5,612 nucleotides of DNA, from positions 1 to 5,612 of the IMG/VR virus record IMGVR_UViG_2548876695_000002; one strand, given 5' to 3'. The stretch is from a virus (Duplodnaviria > Heunggongvirae > Uroviricota > Caudoviricetes). The notes under the pieces were generated by a model. It ran no database searches. It saw nothing but the letters and a program-made list of their open reading frames with translations, and was not told the origin of the DNA. Of the stretch, positions 1 through 5,612 are shown one piece after another (the first letter of the stretch is position 1; every line of letters begins with the position of its first letter). A program made the translations under genes and the position numbers.

Positions 1-73
1 TTCCATCAGAAACGATGATCTGGCAGCCTGAGTTCACAGATAAAACACTCTCCAGGAAAACCGGGGCGGTTCA
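1..73 (+). mobile_element. Right terminus (IRR) of an IS3-family insertion sequence, IS629-like; element body lies left of the window
   Basis: Plus strand ends ...CCGGGGCGGTTCA at 73. Its reverse complement TGAACCGCCCCGGTTTTCCTGGAGA matches the terminus at 5541 (TGAACCGCCCCGGAAATCCTGGAGA) at 22 of 25 positions, so the two are the paired terminal inverted repeats of one IS type. TGA...TCA termini are typical of the IS3 family. Confidence 0.6.
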
Positions 74-289
74 ATCAGAGTTTGATTCAGTAACGCGTAT
101 GGCAGCTAATTCAACATTATATAAATTAAGAATGTCGAGGATGTTATTTCTCACATACTTTAATTTTTCTGGTGTGTCTAAGGTCGAAGGTATTTTAATA
201 ACATCAACACATTTGAGTGCAGACTCATTAGTGCAATATACAACAAAAGATGTAACTTTGGGCGCCGCTCTAACACCTAGTATTCTCAT
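71..289 (-). pseudogene. N-terminal fragment (72 codons) of an unknown gene, truncated by the IS insertion; the stop codon TGA is the IS terminal triplet
   Basis: ORF begins with ATG at 289 and runs leftward in AT-rich DNA (about 28% GC in 121-180 by hand count). Its stop (plus-strand tca 71-73) is exactly the last three bases of the IS inverted repeat. No recognisable family from the sequence. The antisense ORF 15-308 is an alternative reading I cannot exclude. Confidence 0.35.
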
Positions 290-340
290 TTTTTATATCC
301 TATTTTAGAATCAGGCCGCATCTCTGCGACCATCCATCAT

Positions 341-355
341 CCAAACGTCTCTTCA
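341..355. repeat. 15-bp direct repeat CCAAACGTCTCTTCA, copy 1 (copy 2 at 712-726)
   Basis: Exact 15-mer present at 341-355 and 712-726. Copy 1 lies 2 nt 3' of the 113-aa ORF stop and copy 2 lies between the cI stop and that ORF's RBS. Confidence 0.8.
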
Positions 356-356
356 C

Positions 357-698
357 TCATCCGAAGAAGCAGCAATCCGGGTCAGCACGCACAAGCTCAA
401 GCGCATCAGTCAGCGAAAGTTCAGTACTGTACTGATGCCATTTCATATCCTTCCGCATCCAATAGATTTTCCATCTATCCAGAGAACGTATGTACTTGAT
501 TCTTGCTGATGGCAGGATGTTTGTTTCACCTGGATTGCCCTGCCACACGGGGCGCTGTTCGCCGATATCTATCGTTTGGTCATTGATGCTATAAACAATA
601 TCCAGTTCATTGCGGATATGTTCAGGCGGCCTTATGCTTTCAATGAATTGGTGAACTTCTTTTTTTACTGCTTGATATTCAAGGTCATTGAACGCCAT
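357..698 (-). CDS. Hypothetical 113-aa protein, accessory gene immediately downstream of cI on the same strand (position of lambda rexA/rexB)
   Basis: Intact ORF on the cI strand with a strong SD (minus strand AAGGAGGATAG-ATG) 4 nt upstream of ATG at 698. No signal peptide or transmembrane segment is evident; C-terminus ...DPDCCFFG. Family not recognised by eye. Confidence 0.6.
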   Translation of the reverse strand: MAFNDLEYQAVKKEVHQFIESIRPPEHIRNELDIVYSINDQTIDIGEQRPVWQGNPGETNILPSARIKYIRSLDRWKIYWMRKDMKWHQYSTELSLTDALELVRADPDCCFFG

Positions 699-711
699 CT
701 ATCCTCCTTAC

Positions 712-726
712 CCAAACGTCTCTTCA
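712..726. repeat. 15-bp direct repeat CCAAACGTCTCTTCA, copy 2
   Basis: Identical to 341-355; the two copies bracket the 113-aa ORF. Confidence 0.8.
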
Positions 727-758
727 GGCCACTGGTTACCAGCTATGTGACGATGAAG

Positions 759-1466
759 TCACGAACTTTTCAGCCACTCCCTTGCCTCGATGTCATCCAG
801 ATGGCGAGATTGCTTCAGAATACCAGCTACATACTCCACCTTTGCTACTTGATGATAAGGCAACGTTATAGGCCTGTGATCCTGGTTAATGCTTGTAAAT
901 TGGTATTCTCCATCTCTGTCATAGCCAAGAACCTTAATCATGTTGTGTCCTTCAACGGTTCTGACAAACACCTCATCACCCGGGAATACTTTGGTGTTAG
1001 GCTCAATGAGTACATATTCTCCTGATTTTATTCTGGGCCACATGCTGTCTCCTTTCACACGAAGACCAAAGGCATCTGGATCATCGCTATAAATTTTGAG
1101 CCACCCATCGCGCTCTTCGGTCATCTCGATGGCACCATCAACACCAAGAATTGCCTCACCAACCACGCGCACTAACCCTTTTTTTAATTTGCCAACAAAT
1201 GAAAGAGTATCTTCATCATTCGCTCCATTTAACGAAGTGCCGTGCTGAAGCCAAACAACATCAACGTTTAGAAATTTCGCAAGCGCATTCATTTTTTCCT
1301 GACGCGGTAAAGACTCAGCATTAAACCATTTGCTAACGCCTTTGGACGAAAGAGAAAGGGCACGGGCTATAGCCATTCCCCTACCATGTTCATCAAGACC
1401 AGCTTCTTTACAGGCTTGCGCTAGCCGCTGGGCGAATTCTTTGCGCACTTTTTCATTCTGAACCAT
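759..1466 (-). CDS. cI: Phage CI-type repressor (N-terminal HTH DNA-binding domain, C-terminal LexA-like S24 peptidase domain)
   Basis: 235-aa ORF. N-terminal HTH region (...GRGMAIARALSLSSKGVSKWFN...). C-terminal domain has GDSMWP (catalytic Ser) and a downstream Lys in ...HNMIKVLGY, the Ser-Lys dyad spacing of LexA/CI/UmuD. Transcribed divergently from cro. Confidence 0.9.
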   Translation of the reverse strand: MVQNEKVRKEFAQRLAQACKEAGLDEHGRGMAIARALSLSSKGVSKWFNAESLPRQEKMNALAKFLNVDVVWLQHGTSLNGANDEDTLSFVGKLKKGLVRVVGEAILGVDGAIEMTEERDGWLKIYSDDPDAFGLRVKGDSMWPRIKSGEYVLIEPNTKVFPGDEVFVRTVEGHNMIKVLGYDRDGEYQFTSINQDHRPITLPYHQVAKVEYVAGILKQSRHLDDIEAREWLKSS

Positions 1467-1544
1467 GAGTACGATACTAAAGCACTTGCAAAAACTTTCA
1501 GTTCAACCATAATACGTACTGAAAGTACGAAAAAGGATATTCCT
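1467..1544. promoter_or_regulatory. Divergent immunity control region (OR operators, PR rightward, PRM leftward)
   Basis: 78-bp intergenic region between divergent cI and cro. Rightward sigma70-like promoter TTGCAA (1486-1491), 16-bp spacer, CATAAT (1508-1513). Inverted repeats with GTAC cores: CGTACTgaaAGTACG (1515-1529), AGTACG at 1468-1473, and ACTTTCAGT (1494-1502) paired with ACTGAAAGT (1518-1526). cro SD AAGGA at 1533-1537. Exact operator boundaries are not determinable by eye. Confidence 0.6.
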
Positions 1545-1772
1545 ATGCAAAATCTTGATGAGCCGATTAAAGGTGTCGGCATCCCTGAAGTTGCGAAGGC
1601 TTGTGGAGTTAGCGAAAGGGCTGTCTATAAGTGGCTCAAAAACGGCTTCCTCCCTAAGACTGAGTTTTTTGGGAAAACTAAATACGCATCAAAAATCGAA
1701 GAGATTTCTGGTGGCAAATATCAAGCAAGCGAAATGCTTGAAATAAGCAAAAAGAACCTTCTGGCTGCATAA
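1545..1772 (+). CDS. cro: Cro-like HTH repressor
   Basis: 75-aa ORF divergent from cI, with HTH segment GIPEVAKACGVSERAVYKWLKNG; the position and size fit a cro gene. Not lambda Cro in sequence. Confidence 0.8.
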   Translation: MQNLDEPIKGVGIPEVAKACGVSERAVYKWLKNGFLPKTEFFGKTKYASKIEEISGGKYQASEMLEISKKNLLAA

Positions 1773-1810
1773 GTAACACCGCTATTTTCACAATGGACAT
1801 TCGTCCTACG

Positions 1811-1871
1811 TCGCTGACAAAGCGAGTCCCAATATATCTGACCAACTAAGGCTACATGCGTTTCCACGCAT
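1811..1871 (+). promoter_or_regulatory. Two short hairpins in the cro-cII spacer, candidate nutR boxB-like / tR1 region
   Basis: TCGCT-gacaa-AGCGA (1811-1825) and ATGCGT-ttcc-ACGCAT (1856-1871). This is the location where lambdoid phages carry nutR and tR1. No clear boxA consensus seen, so the functional assignment is tentative. Confidence 0.25.
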
Positions 1872-1910
1872 ACCTTTCAACTAACTATTCACTATTGGAA
1901 ATCTTAAGAA

Positions 1911-2207
1911 ATGGAACAAACAAGTTACAGCAAACTATCCCAGCGTGACGTTGATCGCGCAGAAACAGATTTACTCATCAACCTGTCAACGCTTACCCAG
2001 CGCGGTCTGGCAAAGATGATTGGCTGTCATGAATCGAAGATAAGCAGAACGGACTGGAGATTTATTGCTTCGGTCTTGTGTGCTTTCGGAATGGCATCAG
2101 ACATCAGTCCGATTAGCAGGGCTTTTAAGTATGCGCTTGATGAAATCACAAAGAAAAAATCCCCGGTGGCCGCCGGGGACTCTAAGCAAATTGATATGCA
2201 ATTCTGA
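1911..2207 (+). CDS. cII: CII transcriptional activator
   Basis: 98-aa ORF whose C-terminus ...KKKSPVAAGDSKQIDMQF parallels lambda CII ...KKRPAATERSEQIQMEF as I recall it; same size and position between cro and O. Confidence 0.85.
   Translation: MEQTSYSKLSQRDVDRAETDLLINLSTLTQRGLAKMIGCHESKISRTDWRFIASVLCAFGMASDISPISRAFKYALDEITKKKSPVAAGDSKQIDMQF
1920..1933 (-). promoter_or_regulatory. Candidate CII-binding tetrad repeat of pRE (TTGC-N6-TTGT on minus strand)
   Basis: Minus strand reads TTGC-TGTAAC-TTGT across cII codons 4-8, analogous to the lambda pRE -35 region TTGC-N6-TTGC which also overlaps the start of cII. Confidence 0.35.
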
Positions 2208-2229
2208 GGGAATTACTGGATCAATCCAC
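2151..2229 (-). ncRNA. oop: OOP-like antisense RNA overlapping the 3' end of cII, ending in an intrinsic terminator
   Basis: Minus strand hairpin CCCCGGCGGCCACCGGGG (plus 2161-2178) followed by ATTTTTTCTT. The upstream minus-strand sequence resembles the lambda oop transcript (shared GATCCAGTAAT core). Start inferred about 7 nt downstream of the pO -10. Confidence 0.5.
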
Positions 2230-2236
2230 AGGAGTC

Positions 2237-2265
2237 ATTATGACAAATACAGCAAAAATACTCAA
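2237..2265 (-). promoter_or_regulatory. pO-like promoter for the OOP RNA
   Basis: Minus strand TTGAGT (plus 2260-2265), 17-bp spacer, CATAAT (plus 2237-2242); it lies inside the first codons of O, as in lambda. Confidence 0.45.
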
Positions 2266-3178
2266 CTTCGGCAGAGGTAACTTTGCCGAACAGGAGCGTA
2301 ATGTGGCAGATCTCGATGATGGTTACGCCAGACTATCAAATATGCTGATTGAGGCTTATTCAGGCGCAGATCTGACCAAGCGACAGTTTAAAGTGCTGCT
2401 TGCCATTCTGCGTAAAACCTATGGGTGGAATAAACCAATGGACAGAATCACCGATTCTCAACTTAGCGAGATTACAAAGTTACCTGTCAAACGGTGCAAT
2501 GAAGCCAAGTTAGAACTCGTCAGAATGAATATTATCAAGCAGCAAGGCGGCATGTTTGGACCAAATAAAAACATCTCAGAATGGTGCATCCCTCAAAACG
2601 AGGGAGGTTCCCCTAAAATGAGGGACATCCCTCAAAACGAGGGAAAATCCCCTAAAACGAGGGATAAAACATCCCTCAAATTAGGGGATTGCTATCCCTC
2701 AAAACAGGGGGACACAAAAGACACTATTACAAAAGAAAAAAGAAAAGATTATTCGTCCGAGAATTCTGGCGAATCCTCTGACCAGCCAGAAAACGATCTT
2801 TCTGTGGTTAAACCGGATGCTGCAATTCAGAGCGGCAGCAAGTGGGGAACAGCAGAAGACCTGACCGCCGCAGAGTGGATGTTTGACATGGTGAAGACTA
2901 TCGCGCCATCAGCCAGAAAACCGAATTTTGCTGGGTGGGCTAACGATATCCGCCTGATGCGTGAACGTGACGGACGTAACCACCGCGATATGTGTGTGCT
3001 TTTCCGCTGGGCCTGCCAGGACAACTTCTGGTCCGGTAACGTGCTGAGTCCGGCCAAACTCCGCGACAAGTGGACCCAGCTCGAAATCAACCGTAACAAG
3101 CAACAGGCAGGCGTGACAGCCAGCAAACCAAAACTCGACCTGACAAACACTGACTGGATTTACGGGGTGGATTTATGA
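2240..3178 (+). CDS. O: Replication initiator protein O (origin-binding), lambda-like, with a 13-aa insertion encoded by two extra iterons
   Basis: 312-aa ORF with N-terminus MTNTAKILNFGRGNFAEQERNVADLDDGYARLSNML... and C-terminus ...TNTDWIYGVDL matching lambda O as I recall it (lambda O is 299 aa). SD AGGAG at 2230-2234. The extra 13 residues (roughly GSPKMRDIPQNEG) fall in the iteron-encoded linker. Confidence 0.95.
   Translation: MTNTAKILNFGRGNFAEQERNVADLDDGYARLSNMLIEAYSGADLTKRQFKVLLAILRKTYGWNKPMDRITDSQLSEITKLPVKRCNEAKLELVRMNIIKQQGGMFGPNKNISEWCIPQNEGGSPKMRDIPQNEGKSPKTRDKTSLKLGDCYPSKQGDTKDTITKEKRKDYSSENSGESSDQPENDLSVVKPDAAIQSGSKWGTAEDLTAAEWMFDMVKTIAPSARKPNFAGWANDIRLMRERDGRNHRDMCVLFRWACQDNFWSGNVLSPAKLRDKWTQLEINRNKQQAGVTASKPKLDLTNTDWIYGVDL
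2589..2712 (+). repeat. Origin of replication iterons (six O-binding repeats) inside the O gene, followed by an AT-rich unwinding region (2713-2760)
   Basis: Six ~17-18 bp inverted-repeat iterons: TCCCTCAAAACGAGGGA (2589-2605), TCCCCTAAAATGAGGGA (2609-2625), TCCCTCAAAACGAGGGA (2628-2644), TCCCCTAAAACGAGGGA (2648-2664), TCCCTCAAATTAGGGGA (2672-2688), TCCCTCAAAACAGGGGGA (2695-2712). Followed by ACAAAAGACACTATTACAAAAGAAAAAAGAAAAGATTATT. Confidence 0.9.
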
Positions 3179-3876
3179 AAAACATCGCCGCACAGATGGT
3201 TAACTTTGACCGTGAGCAGATGCGTCGAATCGCCAACAACATGCCGGAACAGTACGACGAAAAGCCGCAGGTACAACAGGTAGCGCAGATCATCAACGGT
3301 GTGTTCAGCCAGTTACTGGCAACTTTCCCGGCGAGTCTGGCTAACCGGGACCAGAACGAACTGAATGAAATCCGCCGCCAGTGGGTTCTGGCTTTCCGGG
3401 AAAACGGGATCACCACAATGGAACAGGTTAACGCAGGAATGCGCGTAGCCCGTCGGCAGAATCGACCATTTCTGCCATCACCCGGGCAGTTTGTTGCATG
3501 GTGCCGGGAAGAAGCATCCGTTATCGCCGGACTGCCAAACGTCAGCGAGCTGGTTGATATGGTTTACGAGTATTGCCGGAAGCGAGGCCTGTATCCGGAT
3601 GCGGAGTCTTATCCGTGGAAATCAAACGCGCACTACTGGCTGGTTACCAACCTGTATCAGAACATGCGGGCCAATGCGCTTACTGATGCGGAATTACGCC
3701 GTAAGGCCGCAGATGAGCTTGTCCATATGACTGCGAGAATTAACCGTGGTGAGGCGATCCCTGAACCAGTAAAACAACTTCCTGTCATGGGCGGCAGACC
3801 TCTAAATCGTGCACAGGCTCTGGCGAAGATCGCAGAAATTAAAGCTAAGTTCGGACTGAAAGGAGCAAGAGTATGA
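3175..3876 (+). CDS. P: Replication protein P (DnaB helicase loader), lambda-like
   Basis: 233-aa ORF MKNIAAQMVNFDREQMRRIANNMPEQYDEKPQ... matching lambda P in length and sequence as recalled. ATGA overlap with the O stop at 3175-3178. Confidence 0.95.
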   Translation: MKNIAAQMVNFDREQMRRIANNMPEQYDEKPQVQQVAQIINGVFSQLLATFPASLANRDQNELNEIRRQWVLAFRENGITTMEQVNAGMRVARRQNRPFLPSPGQFVAWCREEASVIAGLPNVSELVDMVYEYCRKRGLYPDAESYPWKSNAHYWLVTNLYQNMRANALTDAELRRKAADELVHMTARINRGEAIPEPVKQLPVMGGRPLNRAQALAKIAEIKAKFGLKGARV

Positions 3877-4163
3877 CGGGCAAAGAGGCAATTATTCATT
3901 ACCTCGGGACGCATAAGAACTTCTGTGCACAGGACGTTTCCGCGGTAACAGGCGCAACCGTAACCAGCATAAATCAGGCTGCGGCTAAAATGGCGCGGGC
4001 AGGAATCCTGATCATTGATGGTAAGGTCTGGCGAACGGTGTATTACCGGTTTGCTACCAGGGAAGAACGGGAAGGAACGGTGAGCACGAACCTGATTTTT
4101 AAGGAGTGTCGCCAGAGTGCAGCGATGAAACGGGTATTGGCGGTATATGGAGTTAAAAGATGA
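3873..4163 (+). CDS. ren: Ren protein (Rex exclusion resistance), lambda-like
   Basis: 96-aa ORF MTGKEAIIHYLGTH...KRVLAVYGVKR, same length and closely similar to lambda Ren as recalled. ATGA overlap with the P stop. Confidence 0.9.
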   Translation: MTGKEAIIHYLGTHKNFCAQDVSAVTGATVTSINQAAAKMARAGILIIDGKVWRTVYYRFATREEREGTVSTNLIFKECRQSAAMKRVLAVYGVKR

Positions 4164-4188
4164 CCATCTACATCACTGAGCTAATGAC

Positions 4189-4220
4189 AGGCCTGCTGGT
4201 AATCGCAGGCCTTTTTATTT
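4189..4220 (+). terminator. Intrinsic terminator, tR2-like
   Basis: 8-bp stem AGGCCTGC (4189-4196) / GCAGGCCT (4205-4212) with loop TGGTAATC, followed by TTTTATTT (4213-4220). Confidence 0.7.
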
Positions 4221-4233
4221 GGGGGAGAGGGAA

Positions 4234-4512
4234 GTGAACGATAGCTACCGACAGTTTGAAAACTGGTGGTCAAAAGACAAAAGCCAGTTCACGGGAGACG
4301 ATGAATTAAAAGAGTTTGCCTGGGTGATATGGCAGGCATCGCGCTCTGCTATTGAACTGGATATCGACTGGCCCGAATCGAATGACGACCTTTGGAAAGA
4401 TGGTGAAGAAGGTGCTTATGCGATGGGTTATGAGGATGGGCGTGACAAAACGGTAATTGCAGTAATGAAAGCCATCAGGGCCGCAGGAATCAAAGAAAAG
4501 AATTTCGATTAA
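4234..4512 (+). CDS. Hypothetical small acidic protein (about 93 aa); start codon uncertain (GTG 4234 preferred over TTG 4219)
   Basis: ORF ...NDSYRQFENWWSKDKSQFTGDDELKEFAWVIWQ...IRAAGIKEKNFD. GGAG at 4224-4227 lies 6 nt before GTG 4234. The TTG at 4219 offered by the ORF track sits inside the terminator T-run and is unlikely. Inserted relative to lambda, where ninB follows tR2 directly. Confidence 0.5.
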   Translation: MNDSYRQFENWWSKDKSQFTGDDELKEFAWVIWQASRSAIELDIDWPESNDDLWKDGEEGAYAMGYEDGRDKTVIAVMKAIRAAGIKEKNFD

Positions 4513-4644
4513 GCAAATATCACTTCAATAAATCGCTTTTAAGGCATCACAATCGCTCTGTGGTGAGGTAAGCACGTGCAAGGCATGCCGATAAGCAGCG
4601 AGAATGAAAAATGCGTCAGAATGCGTTTGAGGAGGTTTTAAGAA

Positions 4645-4860
4645 ATGAGTACGATAGCTGAGCTTGTCAGGGCTAATTTTCGTGAAGAGTTGGTGCGTTG
4701 GTATCGGTATCGTTCATCGTCCAGTTTGCCGCTTGATGAGTTGTATGAGCATTCACCTGCCGCACGACGCTATCCGCGTGACCGTGTTCTTCGACGGTTG
4801 TTCAAACTCAACAATGAGTTTCAGCGCAACAGAATTATCCGGAGTCTGGATTTTAAGTGA
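4645..4860 (+). CDS. Hypothetical 71-aa basic protein
   Basis: Strong SD GAGGAGG (4630-4636) 8 nt upstream of ATG 4645. Arg-rich sequence; family not recognised. Confidence 0.6.
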   Translation: MSTIAELVRANFREELVRWYRYRSSSSLPLDELYEHSPAARRYPRDRVLRRLFKLNNEFQRNRIIRSLDFK

Positions 4861-4870
4861 AGGAGTGAGC

Positions 4871-5041
4871 ATGAGCGACCTATCATTAACCCAGCCAAAG
4901 CTAAAAGAATGTCCGTTTTGCGGCGGTAATGCTCGTCTGTGGGTTGAGGCCGGAATAAATATTGATGTGTGGGGCTATGCAGAATGTGACCTCTGTGAAG
5001 CCAGGGGGGGCATGGGCACCATCAGTTGCTGCGGCGGCTGA
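4871..5041 (+). CDS. Lar-family-like zinc-ribbon protein (restriction alleviation), apparently frameshifted at a G7 tract
   Basis: SD AAGGAG (4860-4865) 5 nt before ATG 4871. CPFCGG-x20-CDLC four-cysteine zinc-ribbon pattern. The frame ends ...GGMGTISCCGG* at 5041, but the other forward frame (codons on 5010, 5013, ...) continues AWAPSVAAAAEKWNRRAGDEANLSASQRSNQK* to 5108 and carries the A-x-x-WNRR motif I associate with Lar-family C-termini. One fewer G in the run 5004-5010 would fuse the two. Confidence 0.5.
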   Translation: MSDLSLTQPKLKECPFCGGNARLWVEAGINIDVWGYAECDLCEARGGMGTISCCGG

Positions 5042-5064
5042 AAAATGGAACCGGAGAGCAGGAG

Positions 5065-5511
5065 ATGAAGCAAACCTTTCTGCTTCGCAACGAAGCAATC
5101 AGAAATAACGCCATAGACGCCATTCTCTCACTACCCATCGACGACAAGTCACCCCACGAAGTCCACGTTAAAGAACCCAAGCGCAGCAAAGCGCAGAATG
5201 ACCGCATGTGGCCGATGCTGAACGATGTTTCGCGTCAGGTGCTATGGCATGGTCAACGGCTGGCGCCGGAAGACTGGAAAGACCTGTTCACTGCCCTGTG
5301 GCTTAAGACCAAAAAACTGGAGCAACGAAGTGTGCCTGGTATCGACGGTGGCGTTGTCATGCTTGGCGTGCGTACCAGCAAAATGCGGAAGGCCAGCATG
5401 ACTGAGCTTATCGAAATCATGTTCTGGTTCGGCTCAGAGCGCAACGTGCGGTGGAGTGATGACTCCTGGCGAGAGTATGAATGGTCACAACGAAAAGGGA
5501 GAGCTGCATGA
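5065..5511 (+). CDS. ninB: NinB (Orf-family recombination protein)
   Basis: 148 aa starting MKQTFLLRNEA... (lambda NinB MKKLTFEIRSP...), with conserved ...DQNRKLW / NDRMWP..., GDVSRQV / NDVSRQV and C-terminal ...EWKARWGDRAA versus ...EWSQRKGRAA. The upstream ATG at 5026 in the ORF track lacks support. GGAG at 5053-5056. Confidence 0.9.
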   Translation: MKQTFLLRNEAIRNNAIDAILSLPIDDKSPHEVHVKEPKRSKAQNDRMWPMLNDVSRQVLWHGQRLAPEDWKDLFTALWLKTKKLEQRSVPGIDGGVVMLGVRTSKMRKASMTELIEIMFWFGSERNVRWSDDSWREYEWSQRKGRAA

Positions 5512-5543
5512 CTATCAAATCAAATACGCCATCACACGACTGA
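5508..5543 (+). pseudogene. First 11 codons of the gene translationally coupled to ninB (ATGA overlap), truncated by the IS insertion
   Basis: ATG 5508 overlaps the ninB stop TGA 5509-5511, the arrangement at the lambda ninB/ninC junction. The reading frame MTIKSNTPSHD terminates at TGA 5541-5543, which is the first triplet of the IS inverted repeat. Confidence 0.4.
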
Positions 5544-5612
5544 ACCGCCCCGGAAATCCTGGAGACTAAACTCCCTGAGAAAGAGGTAAACAGGATGACT
5601 AAAAATACTCGT
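5541..5612 (+). mobile_element. Left terminus (IRL) and 5' end of an IS3-family insertion sequence, IS629-like; element continues beyond the window
   Basis: TGAACCGCCCCGGAAATCCTGGAGACTAAACTCCCTGAGAAAGAGGTAAACAGG-ATG-ACTAAAAATACTCGT matches the IS629 left end and OrfA start MTKNTR as I recall them. Inverted-repeat match to the sequence at 49-73. Confidence 0.75.
5596..5612 (+). CDS. IS3-family transposase OrfA, 5' partial (first 5 codons in window)
   Basis: ATG at 5596 preceded by AAAGAGG. MTKNTR is the remembered N-terminus of IS629/IS1203 OrfA. Only 17 nt fall in the window. Confidence 0.6.

Follow-up and report, generated by a model that had tools for sequence, protein, structure and literature searches.

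Which genes are carried beside the cI repressor gene of the prophage in IMG/VR record IMGVR_UViG_2548876695_000002, and do they make up one exclusion system that an insertion sequence (IS) has broken? We analysed positions 1–5,612 of this record, hereafter the window (5,612 nucleotides in full length), in which an original prediction had placed an intact open reading frame (ORF) of 113 amino acids (aa) and an IS-truncated partner in the slot that rexA and rexB occupy in lambda. On balance we favour the view that the window holds the known pRM (maintenance) operon of 933W-type phages with two independent cargo units expressed in the lysogen: a stand-alone DUF3024 gene, and a cassette of L0083, the kinase gene stk and L0081, which is the unit interrupted here by the IS.

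By its sequence, the window comes from a 933W-type Shiga toxin (Stx) 1a prophage of Escherichia coli O45:H2, of which it forms the immunity region. Positions 74–800 display 99.9–100% identity to 933W, phi24B, Stx2-86, P27 and many Stx1a and Stx2a phages (megablast against phage records), and the exact junction including bases 1–73 is present in seven complete E. coli genomes, mostly O45:H2; in NZ_CP031916.1 the region belongs to an Stx1a prophage. The annotated order in 933W and phi24B is pM/pRM – cI – L0084 (vb_24B_13c) – L0083 (res) – stk – L0081 (vb_24B_12c) – tM/tRM, and therefore the 113-aa ORF is L0084 and the 72-aa ORF corresponds to codons 1–72 of L0083, whose full product is 153 aa. 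The search for an uninterrupted homologous locus, which the original prediction had proposed, thus recovered 933W L0084–L0083. The assignment to a rexAB-equivalent slot also stands, since in both annotated phages these genes lie between cI and the pRM terminator and are transcribed in the lysogen. Expression of vb_24B_13c and res in phi24B lysogens has been shown previously and, as with cI and stk, does not change when the prophage is induced (Veses-Garcia et al., PMC4651098), while in a second transcriptome cI, the DUF3024 gene, the RuvC-like gene and stk change together (PMC10789677). The locus is therefore not a new system, having been sequenced and annotated since the 933W genome and partly characterised. 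Its genes in the window are as follows:

759–1466, minus strand: 933W-type cI repressor, 235 aa (HTH_3 and Peptidase_S24), the first gene of the cargo-carrying pRM operon; GC content 0.452
702–709, minus strand: Shine-Dalgarno (SD) sequence TAAGGAGG of the DUF3024 gene, 4 nt before the ATG
357–698, minus strand: DUF3024 gene, intact, 113 aa (933W L0084, phi24B vb_24B_13c; PADLOC PDC-S43); GC content 0.447
74–289, minus strand: codons 1–72 of 933W L0083 / phi24B res (153 aa when intact), the first gene of L0083–stk–L0081; the ORF including its stop codon spans 71–289; GC content 0.347

The intact ORF on the cI strand with a strong SD, and the second same-strand ORF running into an IS terminus, are thus as predicted. 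That terminus comprises two features:

1–73, plus strand: right end of an IS3-family (IS629-like) element, ending ...CCGGGGCGGTTCA at 73; annotated as 'IS3 family transposase' in NZ_CP031916.1
74–76, no strand: 3-bp target-site duplication ATC, with its second copy at the far IS end in the source genome

In the source genome the junctions read ...AAGATTATC / TGAACCGCCCCGG...(1310 bp)...CCGGGGCGGTTCA / ATCAGAGTTTG..., where the uninterrupted 933W sequence is ...AAGATTATCAGAGTTTG.... The element is 1310 bp long, and its annotation is that of an IS3 family transposase with programmed frameshifting. We identified IS elements by a terminal inverted repeat plus a 3–4-bp target duplication; the inverted repeat TGAACCGCCCCGG... 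is found at both ends, with target duplications ATC for this copy and (C)GAC for a second copy described below, as in IS3/IS629-like elements. This is simple transposition of an IS629-like element with a 3-bp duplication. The IS is oriented antisense to the pRM operon, and its terminal TCA supplies the TGA stop codon (73–71) of the truncated ORF, all 72 residues of which are native L0083. One component had been described as decapitated by the IS, which reverses the actual damage: the N-terminus is intact and it is the C-terminal 81 of 153 residues that have been removed. These 81 residues, stk and L0081 follow beyond the IS in the source genome, so the gene order of the Stk cassette is retained there; in the window L0083 is cut after codon 72, and stk lies outside, separated from pRM by the 1310 bp of the IS.

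We consider L0083–stk–L0081 to be the conserved unit because the trio recurs without DUF3024 and shares a low GC content (0.35–0.38, compared to 0.44–0.45 in DUF3024 and cI). The whole cassette had been called markedly AT-rich, which is true of the truncated ORF and not of the 113-aa gene, whose composition is like that of cI. Klebsiella and Yersinia prophages carry an L0083-like gene, a Pkinase gene and a 55–59-aa ORF directly after the repressor, with no DUF3024 gene. The only distant phage homologues of L0083 lie in Bacillus SPbeta-like phages (167 aa, 35% identity), where the homologue overlaps the start of the gene for a 350-aa kinase (40% identical to Stk), with a 60-aa ORF after the kinase gene. 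Contigs of Terasakiella, an alphaproteobacterium, show an L0083-like gene that lies after an integrase and overlaps a Pkinase gene; at about 1.5 kb they stop within the latter, leaving a 74-aa kinase fragment, and any small ORF would be beyond their reach. The small third ORF of enteric prophages (e.g. L001 2548–2712, L011 6482–6661, L014 6493–6660 and L017 5987–6130 in our set of loci) encodes a basic, hydrophilic protein of 47–59 aa with the N-terminal pattern MKK..P.R...A.PY and no family assignment. In 933W, L0083 and stk overlap by 7 nt, and therefore translation of stk may normally be coupled to that of L0083. The 933W Stk protein matches the PADLOC models PD-T4-6 and mad6 as well as Pfam Pkinase; the passages of PMC3681748 and PMC6356687 that cite Friedman 2011 describe it as a tyrosine kinase, switched on when HK97 infects, that excludes this phage or aborts its infection. 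On the strength of those passages the slot does hold exclusion cargo, as had been proposed, and the DUF3024 protein is itself a catalogued defence candidate.

The same data bear on whether the 113-aa protein and the truncated ORF are two components of a single exclusion system, broken by the IS, as the original prediction had raised. In its favour, 933W-type phages have the two genes side by side on one strand and transcribe them together, lysogens express both, and an Erwinia prophage remnant has the L0083/kinase/small-ORF trio together with DUF3024. However, tblastn detected DUF3024 in 144 phage records and L0083 in 41, around 100 of the 144 being without L0083, while L0083 accompanies a kinase gene and the small ORF, and is found with a kinase but no DUF3024 in Klebsiella, Yersinia, Terasakiella and Bacillus phages. 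Base composition sets the two genes apart, DUF3024 has flanking repeats of its own, and a 67-nt spacer plus a repeat boundary split it from L0083, whereas L0083 and stk overlap. The two-component model is thus contradicted by the synteny data and we regard it as very improbable; two separate units remain our preferred reading.

The first unit is the DUF3024 gene. The original prediction had recognised neither protein and had noted no likeness to RexA or RexB; no match to Rex proteins was found, but both proteins fall into existing families, L0083 into PHROG 3875 (see below) and the 113-aa protein into Pfam DUF3024 (PF11225; 108.9 bits against a cut-off of 24.9, E 2e-31, residues 4–113 of 113) and PHROG 3467 (function unknown; E 1.7e-67). 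It also matches, end to end, the PADLOC single-gene defence candidate PDC-S43 (E 5e-42), a computational candidate with no published phenotype that we could find in the literature. In the predicted structure a five-stranded antiparallel sheet is preceded by one helix and followed by another (alpha-beta5-alpha; predicted local distance difference test score, pLDDT, 90). A profile search of 1.84 billion representatives yielded 893 clusters, nearly all of stand-alone proteins of 110–117 aa, among which N-terminal additions are rare. Sequence searches of the PDB with profiles of the DUF3024 and L0083 families gave nothing below E 0.4, the best Foldseek hit against BFVD had E 0.018, and no NCBIfam model covers DUF3024, L0083 or L0081.

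In the 80 IMG/VR loci examined, DUF3024 keeps its position relative to the repressor and changes its company downstream. A same-strand repressor with helix-turn-helix (HTH) and S24 domains lies directly upstream in 76 of the 80, and these repressors form three sequence clusters; in enteric prophages DUF3024 also follows a short HTH-type repressor. The same first-after-repressor position is seen in Salmonella phage SE1, Stx2-II, a Morganella phage (34% identity), Rouxiella and Kluyvera. Downstream there are at least 15 unrelated groups of genes, including L0083 (30 loci), a 177-aa protein (18) and a 162-aa protein (12), others being ParA-like, M78 peptidase and NYN genes. Outside this setting we collected 80 chromosomal homologues from many phyla (35–73% identity, 77 of the 80 below 50%), which have no conserved neighbour, the 75–78 neighbours representing 83–90 Pfam families. 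A minority of these neighbours are type I or IV restriction, AbiE/AbiL, toxin-antitoxin or other PADLOC-candidate proteins. Given such varied neighbours and the repressor slot in enteric prophages, an autonomous single-gene function fits better than that of a dedicated repressor partner.

The DUF3024 gene is also marked off by its flanks, where the 15-mer CCAAACGTCTCTTCA (TGAAGAGACGTTTGG in its coding-strand form) occurs at both 341–355 and 712–726:

341–355, minus strand: downstream copy of the 15-nt direct repeat (TGAAGAGACGTTTGG), starting 2 nt past the DUF3024 stop codon
712–733, minus strand: upstream repeat copy within a 22-nt relic, CAGTGGCCTGAAGAGACGTTTGG, of a lambda-type cI 3' end (..QWPEETFG), past the stop codon of the 933W-type cI

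The 22-nt upstream relic matches the final codons of lambda cI exactly. Where a phage carries a lambda-type cI, this motif forms the end of the repressor gene itself, whose TAA stop codon falls within the DUF3024 SD. In the window the lambda-type relic, within 699–758, follows a 933W-type cI whose coding sequence ends at 759, and looks like the scar of an immunity-region exchange that kept the DUF3024 junction. Among near-identical loci the motif is present on both sides in 15 of 18 distinct flank pairs; at 57–90% protein identity it is found in 4/10 upstream and 6/10 downstream flanks. We considered a chance repeat and rejected it, since many loci have the 15-mer at both flanks, where chance would give about 6e-4 per flank. 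The Morganella-type group (41% identity) has another motif, ...TGACGACACGTTTTAG, likewise present on each side; it corresponds to the local repressor end ..WPDDTF, and the two copies co-vary between lineages (window plus L006, L016, L022, L023 and L101–L180). The DUF3024 cassette thus brings with it, or re-creates, repeats that derive from the repressor gene's 3' end, and the lineage-matched repeats on both flanks suggest that it is gained and lost by recombination at that end. In Rouxiella badensis (L016 3352–4648) one repressor is followed by a tandem pair of DUF3024 genes, the first directly after it and the second further downstream, flanked by the repeat motif, with a DUF333 fragment on one side and a full DUF333 gene on the other.

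This constant position raises the question of whether DUF3024 is instead an accessory of the repressor or induction circuit, binding cI, RecA* or an antirepressor and so tuning prophage stability rather than serving in defence. In enteric prophages it is always first after the repressor, whether of the three S24-type clusters or of the short HTH type, and the cI stop codon inside its SD in lambda-type-cI phages suggests coupled translation. A precedent exists in Hex of phage 434, which is co-transcribed with its repressor (PMC3564112). A metagenomic protein of 254 aa (P0134) joins an XRE-type HTH domain (53–105) to a C-terminal DUF3024 (143–254) and may be a Rosetta-stone link to repressors or a gene-calling artefact; it is a single example. 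Against a role in the circuit, distant members in many phyla do not lie beside repressors (HTH in only 4 of 75 upstream neighbours), and DUF3024 is 98–100% identical beside two of the S24-type repressor clusters and 87% identical beside the third, which argues against specific contact with the repressor. A match to PsiB is weak, at 5% identity. We therefore think a dedicated circuit function unlikely, and continue to favour DUF3024 as a unit that acts alone.

The second unit begins with L0083. The protein of the truncated ORF matches PHROG 3875, 'RuvC-like' (E 8e-41), and the AlphaFold model of the L0083 family (48 members, the first sequence being 93% identical to 933W L0083; pLDDT 91.5) has a RuvC / RNase H-like fold over the whole of L0083. 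Similarity to RuvC profiles is below threshold (Pfam PF02075, 14.2–16.1 bits against a cut-off of 22.2, E 0.04; NCBIfam RuvC, 12.5 bits against 163). When aligned to E. coli RuvC with hhalign, ILGVRAAP falls on ILGIDPGS, placing R7 at the catalytic D7; R7 does not vary among the 48 family members. If the hhalign register is extended by one residue, R65, also invariant, comes to lie at the position of RuvC E66. Of the catalytic tetrad (D7, E66, D138 and D141 in E. coli) no full counterpart is found, E68 and E140 being the only invariant acidic residues nearby; this mapping is a sequence/profile alignment combined with the secondary-structure register, as distinct from a structural superposition. 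R7, R65 and E68 are all kept in the Bacillus homologue.

It is possible to read these residues in two ways. L0083 could be an active RuvC-type nuclease, either as effector or as a sensor of particular DNA structures that cleaves intermediates of phage replication or recombination, with Stk regulating it; the invariant acidic E68 and E140 near the canonical positions, and the annotation of the phi24B homologue as 'resolvase', point this way. However, D7 is essential for cleavage by RuvC, and Arg occupies its position in every family member and in the Bacillus homologue, with a second Arg at that of E66 and profile similarity to RuvC below threshold. An active nuclease thus seems to us quite unlikely. 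From the invariant Arg we infer a RuvC fold without classical nuclease chemistry and, as far as alignments can tell, a non-nucleolytic sensor or regulator serving the kinase.

With both units in view, the region is the promoter-proximal part of a pRM operon running cI – DUF3024 – L0083 – stk – L0081 – terminator. DUF3024 would act alone, binding a protein or nucleic-acid target, as a factor for exclusion or defence that the lysogen produces constantly, and would travel in enteric prophages as a cassette bracketed by repressor 3'-end repeats. The AT-rich unit consists of L0083 (catalytic Asp replaced by Arg), the Stk kinase as effector and a protein of approximately 50 aa. Insertion of the IS629-like element at codon 72 destroys L0083, separates stk from pRM by 1.3 kb of antisense IS and removes any translational coupling of stk to L0083; it is predicted to be polar on stk. 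The likely outcome in the O45:H2 prophage is an Stk unit that is inactive or under-expressed, while DUF3024 is intact and linked to cI.

Several considerations weigh against this account. The roles of DUF3024 and L0083 are putative, and PDC-S43 is a computational candidate only. The invariant E68 and E140 could still form a reduced metal site. If stk alone suffices for exclusion, L0083 would be dispensable or modulatory, and an outward IS promoter, or the annotated stk ribosome-binding site, could keep Stk expressed in spite of the insertion.

A broader proposal, which we put forward tentatively and with less conviction than the operon structure itself, is that Stk/PD-T4-6-type defence is a three-gene module in which a RuvC-fold pseudo-nuclease gates the kinase, and that DUF3024 is an autonomous, spreading mini-cassette. 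The module may be conserved from enteric prophages to Bacillus SPbeta-like phages, with the pseudo-nuclease sensing phage DNA or protein, and DUF3024 may be a defence or lysogeny factor spread by recombination at repressor 3' ends, leaving matching lineage-specific repeats. Neither idea was found in the searchable literature.

The remainder of the window lies to the right of cI and contains cro, cII, O, P, ren and ninB, after which another IS of this kind starts at 5541. This second IS3-family element (5541–5612 in the window; L003 17542–18851) follows ninB in the same orientation as the first copy and abuts the start of a phage N6-adenine methyltransferase gene. The target duplication beside it is (C)GAC, and 68 of 1310 positions (5%) set it apart from the first copy; in view of the separate target duplications and these mismatches, a composite transposon formed by the two copies is not supported. 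A Lar-family restriction-alleviation gene (4871–5041 in the window; L003 16871–17109) is frameshifted according to the RefSeq annotation. Outside the window, the N antiterminator gene of the source prophage (L003 8436–9308) is annotated as an N-terminally truncated pseudogene, and the truncation of N together with the two IS insertions suggests that the prophage may be defective for induction. An Rfam scan of the window gave no match, and promoter and terminator scans gave results at chance level.

As this is the repressor operon of the main Shiga-toxin phage family, whatever DUF3024 and L0083 do would be expressed in every such lysogen of enterohaemorrhagic E. coli. The division into units would guide the design of constructs, with DUF3024 alone and L0083–stk–L0081 together, and natural IS629 knock-outs such as this O45:H2 prophage would be ready-made controls for Stk-dependent exclusion.

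Compared with the pRM operon of 933W and phi24B, the locus is the same in gene order, strand, SD and flanking repeats, and differs in that L0083 is split at codon 72 by the IS629-like element and that the source prophage also has the truncated N and the IS after ninB. With lambda rexA/rexB it shares the slot and transcription from pRM with cI in the lysogen; however, no RexA or RexB match was found in Pfam, PHROG, NCBIfam or PADLOC, and the cargo is instead DUF3024 plus a RuvC-fold/kinase cassette. L0083 differs from the RuvC proteins of E. coli, Thermus thermophilus (4ld0) and Lactococcus phage 67, with which it shares 12–17% identity, in having an invariant Arg in place of D7. PDC-S43 and PD-T4-6 have been reported together in one O157:H7 strain. 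The likeness to Stk, PD-T4-6 and Stk2-type abortive-infection systems, which use eukaryotic-like kinases, is that the truncated ORF heads the cassette encoding 933W Stk; those systems are catalogued as single-gene, whereas the RuvC-fold partner and the small third ORF described here lie outside their definitions.
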